From positions 40-64,039 of the forward strand of contig JBKPCB010000070.1 of NCBI GenBank assembly GCA_046727155.1: 64,000 nt of DNA, written 5' to 3'. Origin of the DNA: Candidatus Methylomirabilota bacterium (lineage in GTDB: Bacteria; Methylomirabilota; Methylomirabilia; Rokubacteriales; CSP1-6). Positions within the stretch are counted from its first letter, which is position 1. The number at the start of each line of letters is the position of its first letter. The notes below the pieces were generated by a model. That model saw nothing but the letters and a program-made list of their open reading frames with translations. It was not told the origin of the DNA and searched no databases. This document shows, piece after piece, positions 5,501 through 48,379 of the stretch. The position numbers and the translations under genes are program-made.

Positions 5501-7461
5501 GTCGCATCCTCCTCGTTGGCCAGTCCACTCGCGGCTACGGCGAGTTCCGCCGGCCCTGGGTGCGGGCGCTCTACCGGCGCTACGTCGCGCGCTATCGGCG
5601 CCGCCTCGTCGAGGCCGCGGTTCGGCTCGCGCCGGCTGGCGAGCTGACGGTGCTCGCGGCGCGGGAGCTGGTGGACGATCCGCGGCTGCCCGCCGGGACG
5701 CGCGTCTGTTACTACGACGAGGAGTCCTTCAAGGTCGACTCCGGCGAGCTGGCGCGGCTCACCCGTCGATTCACGACCGATTGGTGGCCTGCGGAGGCCG
5801 AGGCGCCGGAGCTGCTCCACCGCGGCGTCTGGCTGCCGGACGTCATCGCCGTGGTCCGCGGGATCGTGCTGCGCTCGGAGGTTATCGAGCCGCTCGGGAT
5901 CGCCGAGCGAGTGTGGCAAGACGCCAAGCCGGCCCGCCTGGTGCTGCTCACCGGCACCTCGATGCTGGAGCGGCTCTGCCGGCTGCTGGCCGAGCGCGAA
6001 CGGGTGCCCATCGAGGTGGCCGCGCCCGGCTTCGCCGCCGCCCACGCCTATGGATGGATCGCGCGGGCGCTCCAGCCGCGGGAGGAGCGGCTGAGGCTCC
6101 GCGAATTCCTCTCCTTTCCCCGTAGCGCGGTGCGGACCGGCGCGGCTGATGGCGCGCGGCGGATCCTGTTCGTCACGTGCCGCCCCCGCCATCATTTCGT
6201 CGTCGACCCGCTGACCACGGCGGTTCGAGCCACGGGAGGCGAGCCCCGTGTTATCGCCACGCCGGCGCGCGATGCGGAGCTGGCCTCGCGGCTCGAGGCG
6301 CTCGGAAAAAGCGGCGTGGCGTGCGATTACCTATCCGATTATCTGCCGCGCGCCGACGCGCTGGCGCTCGTGCGGCGCTACCGGCCGGCGCTCCGCGATC
6401 TATGGCGCAGGGTCGAGCGACGGCCGGAGTTCGCGCGAACTCTCGAACGCAACGGGCTGCCGCTGGCCGCCGTCACGCGGCCGATTCTCAGGGATTCGGT
6501 GGAGCGCACCCTGCTGGTGGCCCTCCTCTTCCAGGAGGCCGCTTTCCGCGCGCTGGACGCGCTGGCCCCCACCGCCGTGGTCGTGACCAGCAACCGGCGT
6601 TACGCGGAGCGGGCCCTCGTGCTGGCCGCCAAAGTGCGGAAGATCCCGTGCCTGCTCTTTTCCGGCACCCTCGTCATGGGCCGCGACCGGGCGGAGCTCT
6701 TCGACATCGGCGACCGGATGGTCGTCATCGGCGAGCACCTCAAGGAGCGCCTCGTCGCCGAGCAAGGCGTCGCGGCGTCGCTCATCTCGGTCGTGGGAGA
6801 TCCGCGCTCCAATGCGGCGCGGCTGATCCCGCCCACCGACCTCCGGCATCAGGTCTTCGCCGACTTCGGCCTGGCGCCGGGGAAGCCGCTTCTGGTGTTT
6901 CTCTCCAAGTATGTGTCGCTGCTCTTTTCGTCGCAGGAGAAGGAAGCCTACTACCGGACGATGATCGGCGCCTTGCCCGCTCTCGGACATCCCAACGTGG
7001 TGGTGAAGGTGCACCCCAATGAGAATCTGAGCCTGCTGAGCGAGCAGGTGAGGCGGTGGGGCTGGCCCGAGGCGATCCTGACCAAGGAGTACGACATCCA
7101 CCGCCTCTTGGCCGTGGCCGACGCCGCCGTGATGGTTACCTCCATGGCGGGCCTCGAAGCCATGGCCCTCGACTGCCCGGTGGTCTCGGTGCAGGCGGCG
7201 GGGAAGGACTACGAGGGCGAGTTCATGCCGCCCTATGTCAGTGAAGGCGTCGTGCAGCGGGTTGACATGGAGGACTCCGCGGCGCTGGCTGCGGCGCTGA
7301 AGCGACTCACCGGCGATCCCGACCGCCGCCAGGCCGTGGTCGAGCGCGGGCGAAAGTTCGCCGCCCGCTACGTCCACCCGGTGGACGGCGGCCTCGGCGA
7401 GCGGCTCCTCTCGGTGGTCGACGAGGTCCGCGGCGAGCTCGCGGGAGGCCGCACGCGATGA
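5497..7461 (+). CDS. 654-aa protein with a C-terminal GT-B-like domain; candidate nonulosonate transferase
   Basis: C-terminal VGDPR, VKVHPNE, ADAAVMVTSMAGLEA motifs resemble GT-B/epimerase/glycerophosphotransferase folds; GTGA and ATGA overlaps at both ends. Confidence 0.6.
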   Translation: MSRILLVGQSTRGYGEFRRPWVRALYRRYVARYRRRLVEAAVRLAPAGELTVLAARELVDDPRLPAGTRVCYYDEESFKVDSGELARLTRRFTTDWWPAEAEAPELLHRGVWLPDVIAVVRGIVLRSEVIEPLGIAERVWQDAKPARLVLLTGTSMLERLCRLLAERERVPIEVAAPGFAAAHAYGWIARALQPREERLRLREFLSFPRSAVRTGAADGARRILFVTCRPRHHFVVDPLTTAVRATGGEPRVIATPARDAELASRLEALGKSGVACDYLSDYLPRADALALVRRYRPALRDLWRRVERRPEFARTLERNGLPLAAVTRPILRDSVERTLLVALLFQEAAFRALDALAPTAVVVTSNRRYAERALVLAAKVRKIPCLLFSGTLVMGRDRAELFDIGDRMVVIGEHLKERLVAEQGVAASLISVVGDPRSNAARLIPPTDLRHQVFADFGLAPGKPLLVFLSKYVSLLFSSQEKEAYYRTMIGALPALGHPNVVVKVHPNENLSLLSEQVRRWGWPEAILTKEYDIHRLLAVADAAVMVTSMAGLEAMALDCPVVSVQAAGKDYEGEFMPPYVSEGVVQRVDMEDSAALAAALKRLTGDPDRRQAVVERGRKFAARYVHPVDGGLGERLLSVVDEVRGELAGGRTR

Positions 7462-8519
7462 GTCCGCGCGCGTTCACGGTGGCGGGGCGCGCGATCGGTG
7501 ACGGCGCGCCCGTCTTCATCGTGGCCGAGGCCGGCGTCAACCACAACGGCGACATGTCGCTGGCCCGCCGGCTGGTGGAGGCGGCGGCCGATGCCGGCGC
7601 CGACGCGGTGAAGTTCCAGACCTTCAGCACCGATGCTTTGGTGAGCCGGGAGGCGCCCAAGGCGACATACCAGCGCGAGAGCACCGGGGACGGCGAAAGC
7701 CAGCGCGACATGCTGGCCCGTCTCGAGCTCACCGCGGACCAGCATGCGGAGCTCCAGCAGCGGTGCGGCAAGCGGGGCCTCGTCTTCTTCTCCGCGCCCT
7801 TCGACGAGCGGGCCGCGGACGCCCTCGAGTCACTCGACGTTCCGCTCTTCAAGATCCCGTCGGGCGAGATCACCAACCTGCCGCTCCTCCGCCACATTTC
7901 CGCCAAGGGACGTCCCGTCATCCTCTCCACCGGCATGTCCACGGTCGACGAGGTCGAGACCGCCGTGGCGGCCATCCGCGATTCGGGCGACCCGCCGCTC
8001 GCGCTCCTTCACTGCCTCTCCGCCTACCCGGCTCCCGCGGCCGAGGTGAACCTGCGAGCCATGGACGTCCTGCGCCAGCGATTCGGCGTCCCGGTCGGGC
8101 TTTCGGATCACACGCTCGGGATCGAGGTCGCGGTGGCCGCGGTGGCGCGCGGCGCGCGCATTGTCGAGAAGCACCTGACTCTGGACAAGACGCTGCCGGG
8201 GCCCGACCACCGCGCGTCGCTCGATCCCGCGGAGTTCGGTGCGCTCGTCAGCGCGATCCGCTCGGTTGAGTCCGCCCTCGGCGACGGCGAGAAGCGCCCG
8301 ATGCCTTCCGAGATGGACACGCGCCGGGTGGCGCGGAAGAGCCTCGTCGCGGCGCGGGCGATTCGCGCCGGCGAGCGGCTCACGGCCGAGATGATCCGCG
8401 TCAAGCGACCCGGCACCGGCATCCCGCCAGCCGAGTTGGAGCGCGCTCTGGGCCGCCCGGTCAAGCGTGCCCTGGCCGCCGACCAGGTGATCGGCTGGGA
8501 GGATCTGGCAGAGCGATGA
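7458..8519 (+). CDS. neuB: Nonulosonic acid synthase with C-terminal SAF domain
   Basis: IVAEAGVNHNG, AVKFQT, KIPSGEITN, LSTGMS, LHCLSAYP, GLSDHT, EKHLT, KRPGTGI. Confidence 0.95.
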   Translation: MSPRAFTVAGRAIGDGAPVFIVAEAGVNHNGDMSLARRLVEAAADAGADAVKFQTFSTDALVSREAPKATYQRESTGDGESQRDMLARLELTADQHAELQQRCGKRGLVFFSAPFDERAADALESLDVPLFKIPSGEITNLPLLRHISAKGRPVILSTGMSTVDEVETAVAAIRDSGDPPLALLHCLSAYPAPAAEVNLRAMDVLRQRFGVPVGLSDHTLGIEVAVAAVARGARIVEKHLTLDKTLPGPDHRASLDPAEFGALVSAIRSVESALGDGEKRPMPSEMDTRRVARKSLVAARAIRAGERLTAEMIRVKRPGTGIPPAELERALGRPVKRALAADQVIGWEDLAER

Positions 8520-43507: not shown

Positions 43508-44563
43508 TCAGCGAACCCGGCTCAGGCGGTACTTCGCCACCGCCGCAACATGGTCGGCGAGGGTGGCGGAGAACTGGTGGCGCCGCTCATCCATCGCCAC
43601 GAAGTAGAGATAGTTGACGCGCGCCGGCCGCACGGCGGCCTGGATCGCCATCCGGCCCGGGCTCGCGATGGGGCCCGGCGGCAGGCCGGTCCGGCGGTAG
43701 GTGTTGAAGGGCGAGTCGACCTGGAGATCCTCCCGGGTCAGACGCAATCGATCCTTGCCGACGGCGTACTGGACCGTGGGGTCGGCCTGCAGCGGCATCT
43801 CGCGCTTGAGGCGGTTCCAGAAGACGGCGGAGATCAGCGGCATCTCGCTCGGGTCCACCGCTTCCTTCTCGATGATGGACGCCAAAGTCAGGAGCTGATG
43901 CAGCGACAGATCGCGGGCGCTCGCCTCGTCCAGCAGCTCCGGCGAGACCTTCTCCCGCATCCGGGCCACCATGCGCGCGAGGATCTCTTCCGGCGTCATG
44001 CCCTTGACGAACTGATAGGTATCCGGGAAGAGGTAGCCCTCGACGGTGTTGGCGCGGATGTCCATCGTTCGGAGGAACAAGCCGTCGCGCGAGACGCGGA
44101 GGATGTCCTCGGCGCGCGCCAGCCGCTCGGTCTCGAGCTGGCGCGCCAGCTCGGCAACGGTCGCGCCCTCCTGGAAGACGACGTTGTGCTGGAGCACGTG
44201 GCCGCCCTCGAGCTGCCAGAGCACGGTGAACGTGCTGGCGCCTTGGGGGATCTGATACTCGCCCGCTTTGAGGGTGCGGGCGCTGCCGCGGAGCATCGCC
44301 AGCAGGCTGAAGCCCACAGGACTGCGGATCGCCCCGGCCTCGTCCAGGAGCCGGGCGACTTCGAAGAGGCCGCGGTGGGGTGGGATCTCGATCACGCGGG
44401 ATCCAGTTCGGAGCCCGGGCGCCGCCGTGACGACGAGCCAGCCCTCCACGACGGTGAAGAGCAAACCGAGGATGAGGGCGAGGACCAGGACGGTCCGGAG
44501 AGCGAACCCGGGCCGACGGGGCGGCTCCGCCCAGGTTTTCAGGAACCGGGGGCGCTCCATCAT
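43508..44563 (-). CDS. mltG: Endolytic transglycosylase MltG (YceG family)
   Basis: N-terminal TM helix, LKAGEY, EGYLFPDTY, LASIIEKE, LQADPTV.Y, YNTY-like FNTY..GLPPGPI, YLYFV. Confidence 0.93.
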   Translation of the reverse strand: MMERPRFLKTWAEPPRRPGFALRTVLVLALILGLLFTVVEGWLVVTAAPGLRTGSRVIEIPPHRGLFEVARLLDEAGAIRSPVGFSLLAMLRGSARTLKAGEYQIPQGASTFTVLWQLEGGHVLQHNVVFQEGATVAELARQLETERLARAEDILRVSRDGLFLRTMDIRANTVEGYLFPDTYQFVKGMTPEEILARMVARMREKVSPELLDEASARDLSLHQLLTLASIIEKEAVDPSEMPLISAVFWNRLKREMPLQADPTVQYAVGKDRLRLTREDLQVDSPFNTYRRTGLPPGPIASPGRMAIQAAVRPARVNYLYFVAMDERRHQFSATLADHVAAVAKYRLSRVR

Positions 44564-44622
44564 TGTTTTTTCCCATTCTGCCAAGGCCTTGCGCCTCAGT
44601 CAAACGGGGTGAGCCCGGGCGG

Positions 44623-44650
44623 TTGTCGCGCGCCGCCTTTCTGCTATAAT
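44623..44650 (+). promoter_or_regulatory. Sigma70-type promoter of the stand-alone rpoA
   Basis: TTGTCG (44623-44628), 16 nt, TATAAT (44645-44650) preceded by TGc (extended -10). Confidence 0.7.
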
Positions 44651-44709
44651 GATCGACCTGTGGTGGTGACCGGGGGCCGTCCGTCCCTGACTCTTCCAGG
44701 AGGGATTCC

Positions 44710-45708
44710 ATGCAGGATCTGATGCTTCCAGTCCGTCACGAATGGCTCGTCCGCGAGCGCGCGTACGGCAAGATCATGATCGAGCCGTTCGAGCCGGGCT
44801 TCGCCCTCACGGCGGGGAATGCCTACCGGCGGGTGCTGCTCGGGTCCATTCCGGGCGCCAGCCCGACTTGGATCAAGATCGAGGGCGTGCTCCACGAGTT
44901 CTCGCACATGCCGGGCGTGACCGAAGACACCCTCGACATCATCATGAATCTCCGCAAGGTGGTCTTCTCGCTCCACGTGAACCGGCCCAAGCTCCTCCGC
45001 CTCAAGGCCCAGGGCGTGCGGACCGTCTCGGCGCGCGACTTTGAGCCCGACGCCGACGTCGAGATCCTCACGCCCGACGTGGTGCTCGCCACGCTGGACA
45101 AGGACGGCTCGCTCGAGATGGAGGTCTGCGTCGAGCGCGGCCGGGGCTACCAGCCGGCGGAGAAGCGGGAGCCCGAAGCGCTGCCGATCAATGCCATGCT
45201 GATCGACGCGGATTTCTCGCCGGTCAAGCGCGTGAACTTCCACGTCGAGAACGTCGGCGCGGGCGGCCAAGAGCGCCTGATCGTGGAGCTATGGACGGAC
45301 GGCAGCGTCAGTCCGGAGACGGCCGTGGGCGACGCCTCGCGCATCCTCGAGGATTCGTTCGCCCTGCTGACCGACTTCCCGCAGACGCCGCCAACCGAAG
45401 CGCAGGGCGGGGAGACGATGGAGCCCGCCGCGCGCCTGGAGCTCAACGAGCATCTCTTCCGCAACGTCGACGAGCTCGAGCTGTCCGTGCGGGCGTCCAA
45501 CTGCCTGAAGACCGCCAACATCCGCACGATCGCCGACCTGGTGCAGAAGACCGAGTCGGAGCTGCTCAAGACGAAGAACTTCGGCAAGAAGTCGCTGAAC
45601 GAGATCAAGACCATCCTGGGAGAGATGGGGCTCTCCCTGGGCATGCGCCTTGATCCGGAGGAGCTGGAGCGGCTGCGCGCGCACTACGAGCGCACCTTGG
45701 AGACCTAG
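44710..45708 (+). CDS. rpoA: DNA-directed RNA polymerase subunit alpha, stand-alone divergent copy
   Basis: [33 protein letters not shown], and alpha[15 protein letters not shown]...[12 protein letters not shown]; GGAGGG RBS. Confidence 0.93.
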
Positions 45709-45738
45709 GGCTTCCTCCCGCTCCCCGCGCGTCCCACC

Positions 45739-45773
45739 AGGGCCCCCGGATCGCCGGGGGCTCTCGTGTTTTC
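45739..45773 (+). terminator. Intrinsic terminator after rpoA
   Basis: 11-bp stem AGGGCCCCCGG / CCGGGGGCTCT (one G-U pair), 4-nt loop, followed by CGTGTTTTC. Confidence 0.7.
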
Positions 45774-45781
45774 GCAGGAAC

Positions 45782-46945
45782 CTAGATGCCTTCCGCCGCT
45801 TTGAGCAAGGCGGCCGGCGCCACCAGCAGGCGCTCGGCGATCTCCTGGATCACCACCTGCGGGTGCTCGCGCTCCACCAGGCGGGCGTCGAAGTTCCGGC
45901 GCCAGTCGCCGGAGCCCGAAGCGTAGACGATCCGCGCGAAGTGTTCCGAGAGAAACGGCTGCAGGCTCACGCCGAAGGAGTCGTGGAACATCACCGCGCG
46001 GGGCAGCGCGGGATCGTCGATCTCGGTGGCCGACGCGGTTCGCTGCGGCTCGACACTGGCCAGCACGACGGCGGCCGGGCGCGCCAGTCGTGGCCCGTGC
46101 GGGCGGAGCTCGAGCCGCGGCTCCTTGAAACGGCCCTCCAGGCTCAGCATCGCCACCAGGTCTCCGCTCCAGCCATCCTGCGTGACCGGCTCGAATGCCG
46201 ACTCCGGCAGAGCCCGCATCCGCGGGAACCATTCGCCGAGGCGGCCCACGATCTCCTGCGAGGCAAGAAGTGCGCCACGACCGTTCCAATGGGTGTCGGT
46301 GCGGAGGTAGAGGACACCGCGTCCCTTGGCTTCGCGCAGCGGCCCGCTCAGATCGAGGACGTCTACGGTCGAGTGGGCGCGCAGGTGGGCGGCGAGTTGA
46401 TCCATGCGCGTCGTGGGGCGGACGCGGTTCAGCGCGTCGGGCATGAACTCGGGGTAGACCGTCTCTTTGCTGGGCGCCACCACCACGAGGAAGTGGATGC
46501 CGCGTTCGGCCAGCCAGTCGCGCCGCCGCTCCATGCGCTGACGCCAGACCTCGAGCTCCTCGGCGGTGAAGGGGTGGACGGCCCGGTATGAGGCGAGCGC
46601 GTCGTCGTCGGCGAAGAAGAGCCAGCCCGCCTTGCCGAGGACGATGCTCTTGGTGGGCGAGACGCCCAAGGCGAGCAGGATGCGGCTGTACTGCCTGACC
46701 AGCGCGCGGCGGAAGCCGAAGTTGTCGTTCCACCAGGACTCGAGCGCGCCGATGTAGCTCACCGACACCATCTCGCCCGGCCGGAGCGGTGGGGGCGGCG
46801 CGAGTCTGCGCTTCTCGGTGAGAACGGGCGTCGGGTCGAGCCCGACCAGAACATCGGCGAGCGGCAGCGCGATCGCGACGACGAATCCGGTGACGAGGAG
46901 CACCTCGGTGAGCCGCCTCAGGTGGCGAAGCGCGCGCGCGGTCAT
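45782..46945 (-). CDS. AlgJ/AlgX-like SGNH O-acetyltransferase
   Basis: N-terminal anchor, GKAGWLF, V.PSKETVYPE, YLRTDTHWN (DxH), FHDSF. Confidence 0.85.
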   Translation of the reverse strand: MTARALRHLRRLTEVLLVTGFVVAIALPLADVLVGLDPTPVLTEKRRLAPPPPLRPGEMVSVSYIGALESWWNDNFGFRRALVRQYSRILLALGVSPTKSIVLGKAGWLFFADDDALASYRAVHPFTAEELEVWRQRMERRRDWLAERGIHFLVVVAPSKETVYPEFMPDALNRVRPTTRMDQLAAHLRAHSTVDVLDLSGPLREAKGRGVLYLRTDTHWNGRGALLASQEIVGRLGEWFPRMRALPESAFEPVTQDGWSGDLVAMLSLEGRFKEPRLELRPHGPRLARPAAVVLASVEPQRTASATEIDDPALPRAVMFHDSFGVSLQPFLSEHFARIVYASGSGDWRRNFDARLVEREHPQVVIQEIAERLLVAPAALLKAAEGI

Positions 46946-46948
46946 GAG

Positions 46949-48379
46949 CTAGAACCGAAAATAGATGAAGGGGTTGTAAGTGCCGGCGGCCATGAGCATG
47001 GCCGAGCCCCAGAGGATTGCCCCCAGGCCCAGGACTCTCGCGACCTCCACCGCGAGGCCGGGGCCCGCGGCCTCGATCCGCCCCCGCCAGCGGGCGAGGG
47101 CCGGCAGCACGGGCGTCGAGCCCACGATCCCGGCGGCGAGAATCAGGATCAACTCGGCGTTCAGATAGAGCGCCGGGTGATACTCGATCCCCGAGCCCGT
47201 CCCGAGCCCCGCCATGGCGGCGAGGACGCGCACGGCGTCGCCGAGCGTCGCCGACCGGAAAAAGACCCAGCCCACGAGCACGACCAGAAGCGCGTAGCCG
47301 TGCCGGGCCCCGGCCGGCCAGCGCTCGAGCCAGCGGCCGGCGCCCAGGCGTTCGATCACGAGGAAGAGGCCGTGGTAGAGCCCCCAAATGACGAATGTCC
47401 AGGCGGCGCCGTGCCAGAGGCCGCACAGAAAGAAGGTGACCACGAGGTTGAAGTACGTCCGGGCCGGCGTGCCCTGGTTGCCGCCCAGCGGGATATAGAG
47501 GTAGTCGCGGAACCAGGTCGAGAGCGAGATGTGCCAGCGCCGCCAGAACTCCGTCATCGAGCGCGAGATGTACGGGTAGTTGAAGTTCTCGAGGAAGTGG
47601 AAGCCCAGCATGAGCCCGAGCCCGATGGCCATGTCGGAGTAGCCGGAGAAATCGTAGTAGATCTGCAGCGCGTAGCACACCACCCCGAGCCAGGCGAGCC
47701 CTGCCGTCAGCTGGTCGGCCGGGATGGCGAAGATCGCGTCGGCCGGCACGGCGACAGTATTGGCAATGAGCATCTTCTTGCCCAATCCGATCACGAACCG
47801 CTCCACTCCGCGCGCGAAGCCCTCGCGGGTGATTGTGCGCTCGACGATCTGGGCCGCCACGTCGCGATAGCGGACGATCGGCCCCGCGATGAGCTGCGGG
47901 AACAGCGAGACGAAGAGCGCGAGATCCAGCGGGTTCTTCTGCACCGGTCCGTCCCGGCGCTGGACGTCGATCACGTACGAGAAGGCCTGGAAGGTGAAGA
48001 ACGAGATGCCGATCGGAAGCGCGATCGGCGCCAGATGGATGGGCGCGGCGCCGATCCCGCCGAGTAACACGTTGAGGTTGTCGACGATGAAATTGGCGTA
48101 CTTGTAGACGGCGAGAAGCCCGATATTGAGCGCGACACCCAGCGCCATGACCCAGCGCGCCGCCGGGCGGGCGCGCACCCGGTCCACCCAGAGCCCCAAG
48201 GCGAAGTTGACGGCGATCGAGGCGATCATCACCAGGACAAACCGCGGCTCGCCCCAGCCGTAAAAAATCAGGCTCATGATCAGGAGCCAGAGGTTGCGGA
48301 GCCTGACGGGGAGAGCGAAGTTGACGGCGAGGACAATGGGCAGAAACAAAAAGAGAAAGATCGGCGAGCTGAAGACCAT
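46949..48379 (-). CDS. MBOAT family O-acyltransferase (AlgI/PatA-like)
   Basis: MVFSS..FL, LPIGISFFTFQ, FPQLIAGPIVRY, DFSGYSDMAIG, EFWRRWHISL, GLWHGA, FIYFRF. Confidence 0.94.
   Translation of the reverse strand: MVFSSPIFLFLFLPIVLAVNFALPVRLRNLWLLIMSLIFYGWGEPRFVLVMIASIAVNFALGLWVDRVRARPAARWVMALGVALNIGLLAVYKYANFIVDNLNVLLGGIGAAPIHLAPIALPIGISFFTFQAFSYVIDVQRRDGPVQKNPLDLALFVSLFPQLIAGPIVRYRDVAAQIVERTITREGFARGVERFVIGLGKKMLIANTVAVPADAIFAIPADQLTAGLAWLGVVCYALQIYYDFSGYSDMAIGLGLMLGFHFLENFNYPYISRSMTEFWRRWHISLSTWFRDYLYIPLGGNQGTPARTYFNLVVTFFLCGLWHGAAWTFVIWGLYHGLFLVIERLGAGRWLERWPAGARHGYALLVVLVGWVFFRSATLGDAVRVLAAMAGLGTGSGIEYHPALYLNAELILILAAGIVGSTPVLPALARWRGRIEAAGPGLAVEVARVLGLGAILWGSAMLMAAGTYNPFIYFRF

Follow-up and report, generated by a model that had tools for sequence, protein, structure and literature searches.

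A second, conserved RNA polymerase alpha subunit in the Rokubacteriales and its probable place in an oriented alpha heterodimer

The window analysed here, a stretch of 64,000 nucleotides of contig JBKPCB010000070.1 from a Candidatus Methylomirabilota assembly (GCA_046727155.1, order Rokubacteriales), contains a stand-alone rpoA gene, which we call A2 to distinguish it from the rpoA of the alpha operon, A1. A2 is certainly a genuine and conserved second alpha subunit of RNA polymerase (RNAP). Residues are numbered throughout as in Escherichia coli RpoA; with 329 amino acids (aa) the reference sequence used has the same length as the solved E. coli alpha chains, and it puts R45, L48, K86, V173, V180, K200, R265 and K298 at their published positions. 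The gene, its signals and the parts of its product, including the carboxy-terminal domain (CTD) of alpha (alphaCTD), lie in the window as follows.

44623..44650, + strand: extended -10 promoter-like site of A2, TTGTCG-16-TGcTATAAT, with 10/12 matches plus the TG (shuffles give 0.0 sites)
44651..44709, + strand: 5' leader of A2, containing G/C-rich hairpin(s) and, at 44698-44704, the ribosome-binding site AGGAGGG, from the sequence and from ViennaRNA on orthologous leaders
44710..45708, + strand: A2, rpoA paralogue, open reading frame of 332 aa plus stop, recognised by Pfam and NCBIfam, with orthologues 64-94% identical across Rokubacteriales
44782..44832, + strand: N-terminal assembly segment from EPFEPG (R33 to P) to GNAYRR (L43 to Y; R44 and R45 kept), from the alignment
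44893..44907, + strand: HEFSH motif (E. coli H66-E67-Y68), which A2 keeps and A1 has lost
45247..45273, + strand: degenerate hairpin tip ENVGAGGQE, shorter, in place of [DN]-T-R-V-G-Q-x-T-D-Y (E. coli 189-198)
45472..45609, + strand: alphaCTD core with the '265 determinant' (equivalents of R265, N268, C269, G296, K298 and S299; Pfam PF03118)
45649..45705, + strand: A2-specific C-terminal tail, present in all A2 orthologues listed and in none of the single-copy alphas of sister orders
45739..45774, + strand: hairpin of 11 pairs, 9 of them G-C, with a T run, resembling an intrinsic terminator of A2

Pfam recognises RNA_pol_L (PF01193, aa 25-216), RNA_pol_A_bac (PF01000, aa 55-170) and RNA_pol_A_CTD (PF03118, aa 246-304) in A2, that is, the standard RpoA order of a dimerisation domain 1 split by an insert domain 2, a linker and an alphaCTD. 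The protein scores above two NCBIfam RpoA equivalog cut-offs as well as TIGR02027 (370 bits vs 302 for NF003513, 323 vs 228 for TIGR02027). The motifs that an earlier note on this DNA had quoted for A2 are all present, with EPFEPG at aa 25-30, GNAYRR at aa 36-41 and the others at aa 255-267, 290-300 and 179-190, the last being the loop described as shortened, which shows a 3-residue gap when A2 is aligned to solved alphas. A sequence scan against shuffles also recovered the extended -10 promoter and the terminator that had been attributed to the gene, the promoter-site shuffles being made from A2's own region of 67% G+C. Upstream of A2 orthologues, TGnTATA[AC]T occurs in 73/97 distinct loci, with a median distance of 48 nt to the start codon, compared with 0.2% of shuffles. 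In the window AGGAGGG lies 5 nt upstream of the A2 ATG, and most orthologous leaders carry a GGGG...CCCC hairpin a few bases past the -10 element (ViennaRNA), followed by a strong ribosome-binding site. The leader hairpin could be an mRNA-stabilising or regulatory 5' stem; an Rfam search of the A2 leader gave no match to a known RNA element.

The genes next to A2 are all on the opposite strand:

43508..44584, - strand: mltG (YceG family; Pfam YceG, 291 bits), divergent from A2
45782..46945, - strand: AlgX/AlgJ-type SGNH acyltransferase gene (Pfam ALGX), convergent with A2
46949..48379, - strand: MBOAT gene (Pfam MBOAT), convergent with A2

Since both mltG upstream and the AlgX-type SGNH and MBOAT genes downstream are oriented against it, A2 is monocistronic by layout. 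No ribosomal protein gene adjoins it, the alpha-operon position between rpsD and rplQ being held by A1. In 80/81 related loci with room for it, FN3-argH-plsC-mltG lie on one strand, A2 on the other, and comEC follows, and the arrangement mltG <-> A2 -> <- comEC is found in both large Rokubacteriales families. The position between mltG and an AlgJ-like gene given in the earlier note is therefore true of the window, but the conserved neighbour is comEC and not the AlgJ-like gene. The algX-MBOAT pair separates A2 from comEC in only 3 related loci, with comEC directly after A2 elsewhere, and is a local insertion, probably of polysaccharide O-acylation genes.

The possibility that A2 is the only rpoA of its genome, simply relocated, was considered and is ruled out by an operon copy in the same genome. 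The 2.85-Mb assembly (75% complete) contains A1, 40% identical to A2, on contig C78 in the order secY-adk-map-infA-rpsM-rpsK-rpsD-rpoA-rplQ, and the A1 stop codon overlaps the rplQ start (ATGA). Both copies occur in 36/40 relatives and in 86/97 Rokubacteriales genomes that are at least 90% complete; nine one-copy genomes among those 97 comprise 5 with A1 only and 4 with A2 only, a split expected from assembly gaps. A binning or contamination artefact is likewise ruled out, both genes sharing one contig in several near-closed genomes (a single contig carries the pair in G062, G080, G133, G137, G036, G038 and G040). Other Methylomirabilia orders, including a closed 2.75-Mb genome, have one rpoA, in the operon, with one exception that is described below (G129). 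The genes for beta and beta', rpoB and rpoC, are single-copy in the clean assemblies (G062, G135, G133, G034 and G047). No extra beta or beta' copies were found in clean assemblies, and the additional fragments in G036 and G137 are frame-broken or at contig ends. One such stretch, a second rpoB-rpoC with stop codons (G137:C12:178917-183858), could be a pseudogene, contamination or an assembly error. The window's own assembly (G000) is without rpoB and rpoC, a gap in a metagenome-assembled genome.

Both A1 and A2 are under purifying selection. The ratio of nonsynonymous to synonymous substitution rates (dN/dS) is 0.12-0.16 for A2 and 0.09-0.31 for A1, with 0.05-0.14 for rpsD, rpsK and rplQ. The idea that A2 is a sporadic, neutrally evolving copy did not hold, as these values and its retention across the order with 64-94% identity rule out a neutral or decaying gene. 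Neither is the window copy the more divergent alpha: A2 scores higher than A1 on TIGR02027 (323 bits vs 298) and more closely resembles the lone alpha of sister orders (49-55% identity, about 40-46% for A1). Between families f1 and f4, identity is 65% for A2, 51% for A1, about 75% for rpsD, about 88% for rpsK and about 72% for rplQ.

The two paralogues have each lost a conserved motif that the other retains. We compared 99 A2, 35 full-length A1 and 5 short (CTD-less) A1 sequences with 119 other alphas. H66, E67 and F68 are kept in 99/99, 98/99 and 99/99 A2 sequences and in 87-97% of the other alphas, and in none of the full-length (0/35) or short (0/5) A1 sequences, where varied residues occupy these positions. 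Conversely, R191, G193 and D197 are present in at most 15% of A2, in all A1 (35/35 full-length and 5/5 short) and in 78-88% of other alphas, and T196 in 2% of A2, 32/35 A1 and 76% of other alphas. The A2 loop at 189-198 is shorter and varies in length and sequence between orthologues, so that the canonical hairpin tip is absent; V192 is also lost. A2 keeps R44 (99/99), R45 (99/99) and L48 (95/99), the window copy reading GNAYRRVLL, and its specific changes are L43 to Y or F, K86 to R and R33 to P. Changes specific to the N-terminal domain (NTD) of A1 are S50 to I and A112 to G. In the CTD, A2 has R265, N268, C269, G296, K298 and S299 invariant in 99/99, along with nearly all other scored positions, and A1 shows S263P, C269A, L290E, F295L and L300I and keeps R265, N268, G296, K298 and S299. 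The Pfam scores agree with this pattern, the insert domain scoring 107 in A2, 73 in A1 and 61 in short A1, and RNA_pol_L (dimerisation) 59, 76 and 80, respectively. At the sequence level, the pair thus presents the complementary loss of beta-side and beta'-side determinants known from the Francisella paralogues.

In two families the operon copy has gone further. A1 is without a CTD in all 14 f4 genomes and in family f3, where it consists of the NTD and an acidic tail (237-249 aa; no CTD by Pfam), the loci being L120-L123 (G034, G036, G038 and G040) and L125 (G026). The stop codon of short A1 still overlaps the rplQ start (ATGA), as in full-length A1, and because of this overlap there is no frameshift and no room for a split CTD. 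A long-read frameshift artefact is ruled out by the intact overlap and by the occurrence of the short form in all 14 f4 genomes, including short-read ones. Searches for rpoA in the relatives revealed no third alpha-like gene in genomes with a CTD-less A1.

The history of the pair was examined in two trees, one of 148 rows and a careful one of 74 rows, with supports given as pairs. The A2 clade (100/99) and the A1 clade (100/100) show mirrored internal branching, and their stems are long (0.50 and 0.45). The 148-row tree places them as nearest neighbours, with 93 in the Shimodaira-Hasegawa-like approximate likelihood ratio test (SH-aLRT), and in the 74-row tree they share a node (90/85) that includes the representative P0022. 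Constraining A1 and A2 to a clade cost 1.3 log-likelihood units (lnL; p 0.42 in the approximately unbiased, AU, test), whereas placing A2 alone with the sister orders cost 19.5 lnL (p 0.16) and A1 alone 16.0 lnL (p 0.22). G36A and V78T are rare derived states common to both paralogues, and no A2-like protein above about 50% identity was found outside the group among 1.84 billion representatives. Because of the trees, these likelihood costs, the shared derived states and the lack of a close outside match, the best reading of the sequences, though not a proven one, is that the gene was duplicated at the base of the Rokubacteriales (phylum Methylomirabilota) or close to it.

The two forms recur in a different bacterial group as parts of one protein. 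Among the distant matches, P0010 is an alpha of 526 aa with the architecture NTD-NTD-CTD from Candidatus Termititenax persephonae (Margulisbacteria), annotated at NCBI as a hypothetical protein and encoded in the context infA-rpsM-rpsK-rpsD-[rpoA]-rplQ:

5910-7490 of locus L179, + strand: fused rpoA of Ca. T. persephonae (GCA_003864475.1, BGZO01000033.1)

It is the only rpoA in this 1.8-Mb genome. Four more NTD-NTD-CTD alphas (P0151-P0154), 50-88% identical, bring the number to five (526-545 aa), and unfused Margulisbacteria alphas keep both motifs. In 5/5 fused proteins, half 1 is without GVxHEFS, keeps the loop EP[AT]RVGKS[LI]DYD and has no CTD, and half 2 keeps GVxHEFS and RR, has a short, degenerate loop and carries the CTD; R44/R45 of half 1 are altered in 4/5 (QR, QR, KK, KK). 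Judged by these motifs, the two Termititenax halves correspond to the short A1 and A2 forms, here tied into one enzyme, and constitute an independent replicate. A literature search retrieved no description of this fused alpha. A partial parallel is found in G129, a genome of another Methylomirabilia order, which has two rpoA genes about 4 kb apart (L129, G129:C3:118090-130958). Its operon copy is canonical, and its second copy, which clusters with P0036, keeps HEF(C) and is without the R-G-TDY loop (VEPLKPGDLLHRERL); this pair may represent the same specialisation at a less advanced stage. Other alphas short of one motif occur among the distant representatives, P0117 and P0141 being HEF-less and P0084, P0146, P0070 and P0057 loop-less, and these may mark further lineages with specialised alpha pairs.

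Considering that each paralogue has lost a different near-universal contact motif, A1 and A2 most likely act as a fixed mixed pair, and we regard a Francisella-like oriented heterodimer as probable on the basis of these sequences. This agrees with the proposal in the earlier note of a paralogue specialised for one position of an alpha heterodimer, which gains support from both the reciprocal motif loss and the fused Termititenax alpha; the other option offered there, an alternative-alpha regulator, is less well supported. Footprints of E. coli alpha, as cited in PMC3294249, show protection of residues 30-55 and 65-75 by beta and of 175-185 and 195-210 by beta'. The substitutions R45A and L48A block beta binding, and binding of beta' is impaired by K86A, by V173A and by insertions at 180 and 200 (PMC3294249). 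The 180-207 sheet of alphaII swings to meet beta' (PMC13202282). Since the motif lost in A1 falls in a beta-protected segment, and in A2 the 180-207 hairpin is without its tip and K86 is replaced, A2 would correspond to alphaI on the beta side and A1 to alphaII on the beta' side. In the Termititenax fusion, the altered R44/R45 belong to the half without HEF, which likewise points to the beta' side for the HEF-less form. In the proposed arrangement, A2, with R45, H66-E67-F68 of domain 2 and a near-invariant alphaCTD, would sit on beta as alphaI and provide the main alphaCTD of the enzyme, which in two families would be the only one. A1, with the R191-G193-D197 tip kept, H66-E67-F68 lost and the CTD degraded or absent, would take the beta'-bound alphaII position. 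A2 would be made from its conserved extended -10 promoter, and A1 from the ribosomal-protein operon with its stop overlapping the rplQ start.

With somewhat less confidence, we lean towards a wider proposal drawn from the same comparisons. The RNAP of the Rokubacteriales would be built on an obligate oriented alpha heterodimer, with a single alphaCTD on the beta-side A2 in at least two families, and would be moving toward an asymmetry of the Rpb3/Rpb11 type, the same decay recurring in Termititenax and partly in another Methylomirabilia order. If this is true, the reciprocal decay, with H66-E67-F68 lost from the alphaII form and the 189-198 tip from the alphaI form, would be a sequence signature for hidden alpha heterodimers.

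Several observations count against these proposals. Francisella alpha2 has lost R45, but both A1 and A2 keep it, together with R44 and L48, and the fixed dimer-helix differences at 35, 42, 43, 46, 50 and 223 cannot be read as excluding homodimers. The link from the motifs to beta and beta' rests on E. coli footprinting and mutants, taken second-hand from PMC3294249, and the alpha interfaces of Bacillus subtilis differ from those of other lineages (PMC13202282). As for the duplication, the AU tests reject none of the alternative placements (p 0.16-0.42), and an incomplete f2 genome (G025, 73% complete; L141, L181) has a single operon alpha that branches at the base of the A1 clade and is fully canonical, its CTD and both motifs included. 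This is the only rpoA found there, and a ruvX-like gene, not A2, lies beside its mltG. The f2 genome complicates the dating of the duplication, as either A2 was lost there or the tree misplaces its alpha.

An alternative is that the two paralogues form separate homodimeric polymerases, an (A1)2-beta-beta' enzyme for housekeeping and an (A2)2-beta-beta' enzyme for particular promoters or conditions, with A2 as an alternative-alpha regulator. We consider this unlikely. It would suit the promoter and terminator of A2, which are separate from the ribosomal operon and would allow independent regulation, the retention of R44, R45, L48 and most dimer-helix residues in both proteins, and the weak activity of the Francisella alpha1 homodimer (PMC3294249). 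However, a homodimer needs both surfaces, and A1 is unconstrained at H66-E67-F68 and A2 at 189-198, when single-copy lineages all keep both; an A1 homodimer in f3 and f4 would moreover have no alphaCTD at all. The supposed special-purpose subunit is also the better-conserved copy, with a near-consensus, constitutive-looking promoter, and in the fused Termititenax alpha the same two forms act together in one enzyme. It appears less likely still that homodimers of A2 are the true housekeeping alpha and A1 is a decaying remnant or has a role outside RNAP. A2 is indeed nearer to the ancestral sequence and has the higher rpoA-model score, and A1 evolves faster than its ribosomal neighbours (51% between families vs 72-88% for rpsD, rpsK and rplQ) and has lost its CTD in two families. 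Yet A1 is intact in every lineage examined, with a dN/dS of 0.09-0.31, keeps R44/R45 and R191/G193/D197 in 35/35 and retains its stop-start overlap with rplQ through the loss of the CTD, and the degenerate loop of A2 sits in the sheet that meets beta'.

The explanation we find the most improbable is that one copy is a horizontally acquired xenologue or that the pair arose by metagenome binning. The AU tests do allow one paralogue to be placed by itself with the sister orders (p 0.16 for A2, 0.22 for A1), and in the 74-row tree A1 and A2 join at an unresolved node together with P0022. Against this, several nearly closed genomes carry the pair on a single contig, and beyond the group the 1.84 billion representatives include nothing A2-like at more than about 50% identity. 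In both trees the A1 and A2 clades come out as nearest neighbours, G36A and V78T are common to them, and their subtrees are mirrored, with the place of A2 beside mltG fixed across the order.

The RNAP of Francisella reportedly contains an alpha1/alpha2 heterodimer, described by Charity and colleagues in 2007. It is the nearest known system to the pair found here (Mukhamedyarov et al. 2011, PMC3294249); the motif comparison was taken from the text of PMC3294249, and the Francisella RNAP structures 6WMP, 6WMR and 6WMT were among the solved alphas matched. In both cases, two non-identical rpoA genes (A1 being full-length except in f3 and f4) are kept throughout a lineage, in the Rokubacteriales in almost every genome, alongside a single beta and a single beta', with one rpoA in the ribosomal operon and one elsewhere. 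In both, the assembly determinants are split unevenly between the paralogues, which would imply an oriented heterodimer. Both Francisella paralogues sped up after a lineage-specific duplication, and the Rokubacteriales pair may have done likewise: A1 and A2 are nearest neighbours with long stems, and the AU test rejects neither an A1+A2 clade (p 0.42) nor the costlier alternatives. On the other hand, the Rokubacteriales pair arose independently, in an uncultured Methylomirabilota order of soil and groundwater, and the affected residues are not the same. Francisella has R45 to Q in alpha2 and K200 to T in alpha1, whereas in the Rokubacteriales R45 is kept in both, H66-E67-F68 is lost in A1, and 189-198 is lost and K86 changed to R in A2. 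Francisella also has a CTD on both alphas, unlike two Rokubacteriales families whose operon copy has no alphaCTD and whose enzyme would have one.

More than one rpoA per genome has also been found in Chloroflexus, where the pair is ancestral to the genus, and in Streptomyces avermitilis (PMC3294249). These paralogues show no drastic changes in dimerisation or in beta and beta' contacts and may be equivalent (PMC3294249), unlike the two motifs lost reciprocally in the Rokubacteriales. The Termititenax fused alpha resembles A1 and A2 in combining a HEF-less, loop-keeping, CTD-less form with a HEF-keeping, CTD-bearing form with a degenerate loop; it differs in being one polypeptide, encoded in the alpha operon as the sole rpoA, with R44 or R45 of half 1 changed in 4/5. 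The archaeal and eukaryotic pairs Rpo3/Rpo11, Rpb3/Rpb11 and AC40/AC19 are two alpha-like subunits at fixed positions (PMC3294249). There, domain 2 and the surface equivalent to R45 persist in the subunit on the beta-like side, and the partner on the beta'-like side is reduced. Rpb11, the beta'-side partner, has no domain 2, and the relaxed domain 2 and CTD loss of A1 go in the same direction, although domain 2 of A1 is still complete, if divergent. Neither Rpb3 nor Rpb11 has an equivalent of the bacterial alphaCTD, and the archaeal and eukaryotic assemblies additionally require subunits of the Rpb10/Rpb12 type.

A literature search produced no paper linking rpoA with Rokubacteria or Methylomirabilota. 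To our knowledge, and apart from Francisella, the bacterial core RNAP is taught as alpha2-beta-beta'-omega with two identical alphas, and a second case, spanning a whole order of abundant, uncultured soil bacteria, would mean that the Francisella arrangement is no one-off. The reciprocal loss would provide a natural map of the alpha surfaces that are needed only at alphaI and only at alphaII, a question otherwise approached through engineered R45A heterodimers. A partner without a CTD predicts polymerases with one alphaCTD, which bears on the use of UP elements and on activator geometry, and the pattern would tie the evolution of bacterial alpha to the origin of the Rpb3/Rpb11 asymmetry. On a practical level, rpoA is often used as a single-copy marker, and it is not single-copy in the Rokubacteriales.

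Two further alpha-like proteins of unusual architecture were encountered. P0004 (569 aa) is an exact tandem repeat of one alpha NTD, and the identity of its copies suggests an assembly artefact and not a fusion. In P0011 (1031 aa), a hydrophobic N-terminus precedes a tandem array of about a dozen helix-hairpin-helix repeats that resemble the alphaCTD.

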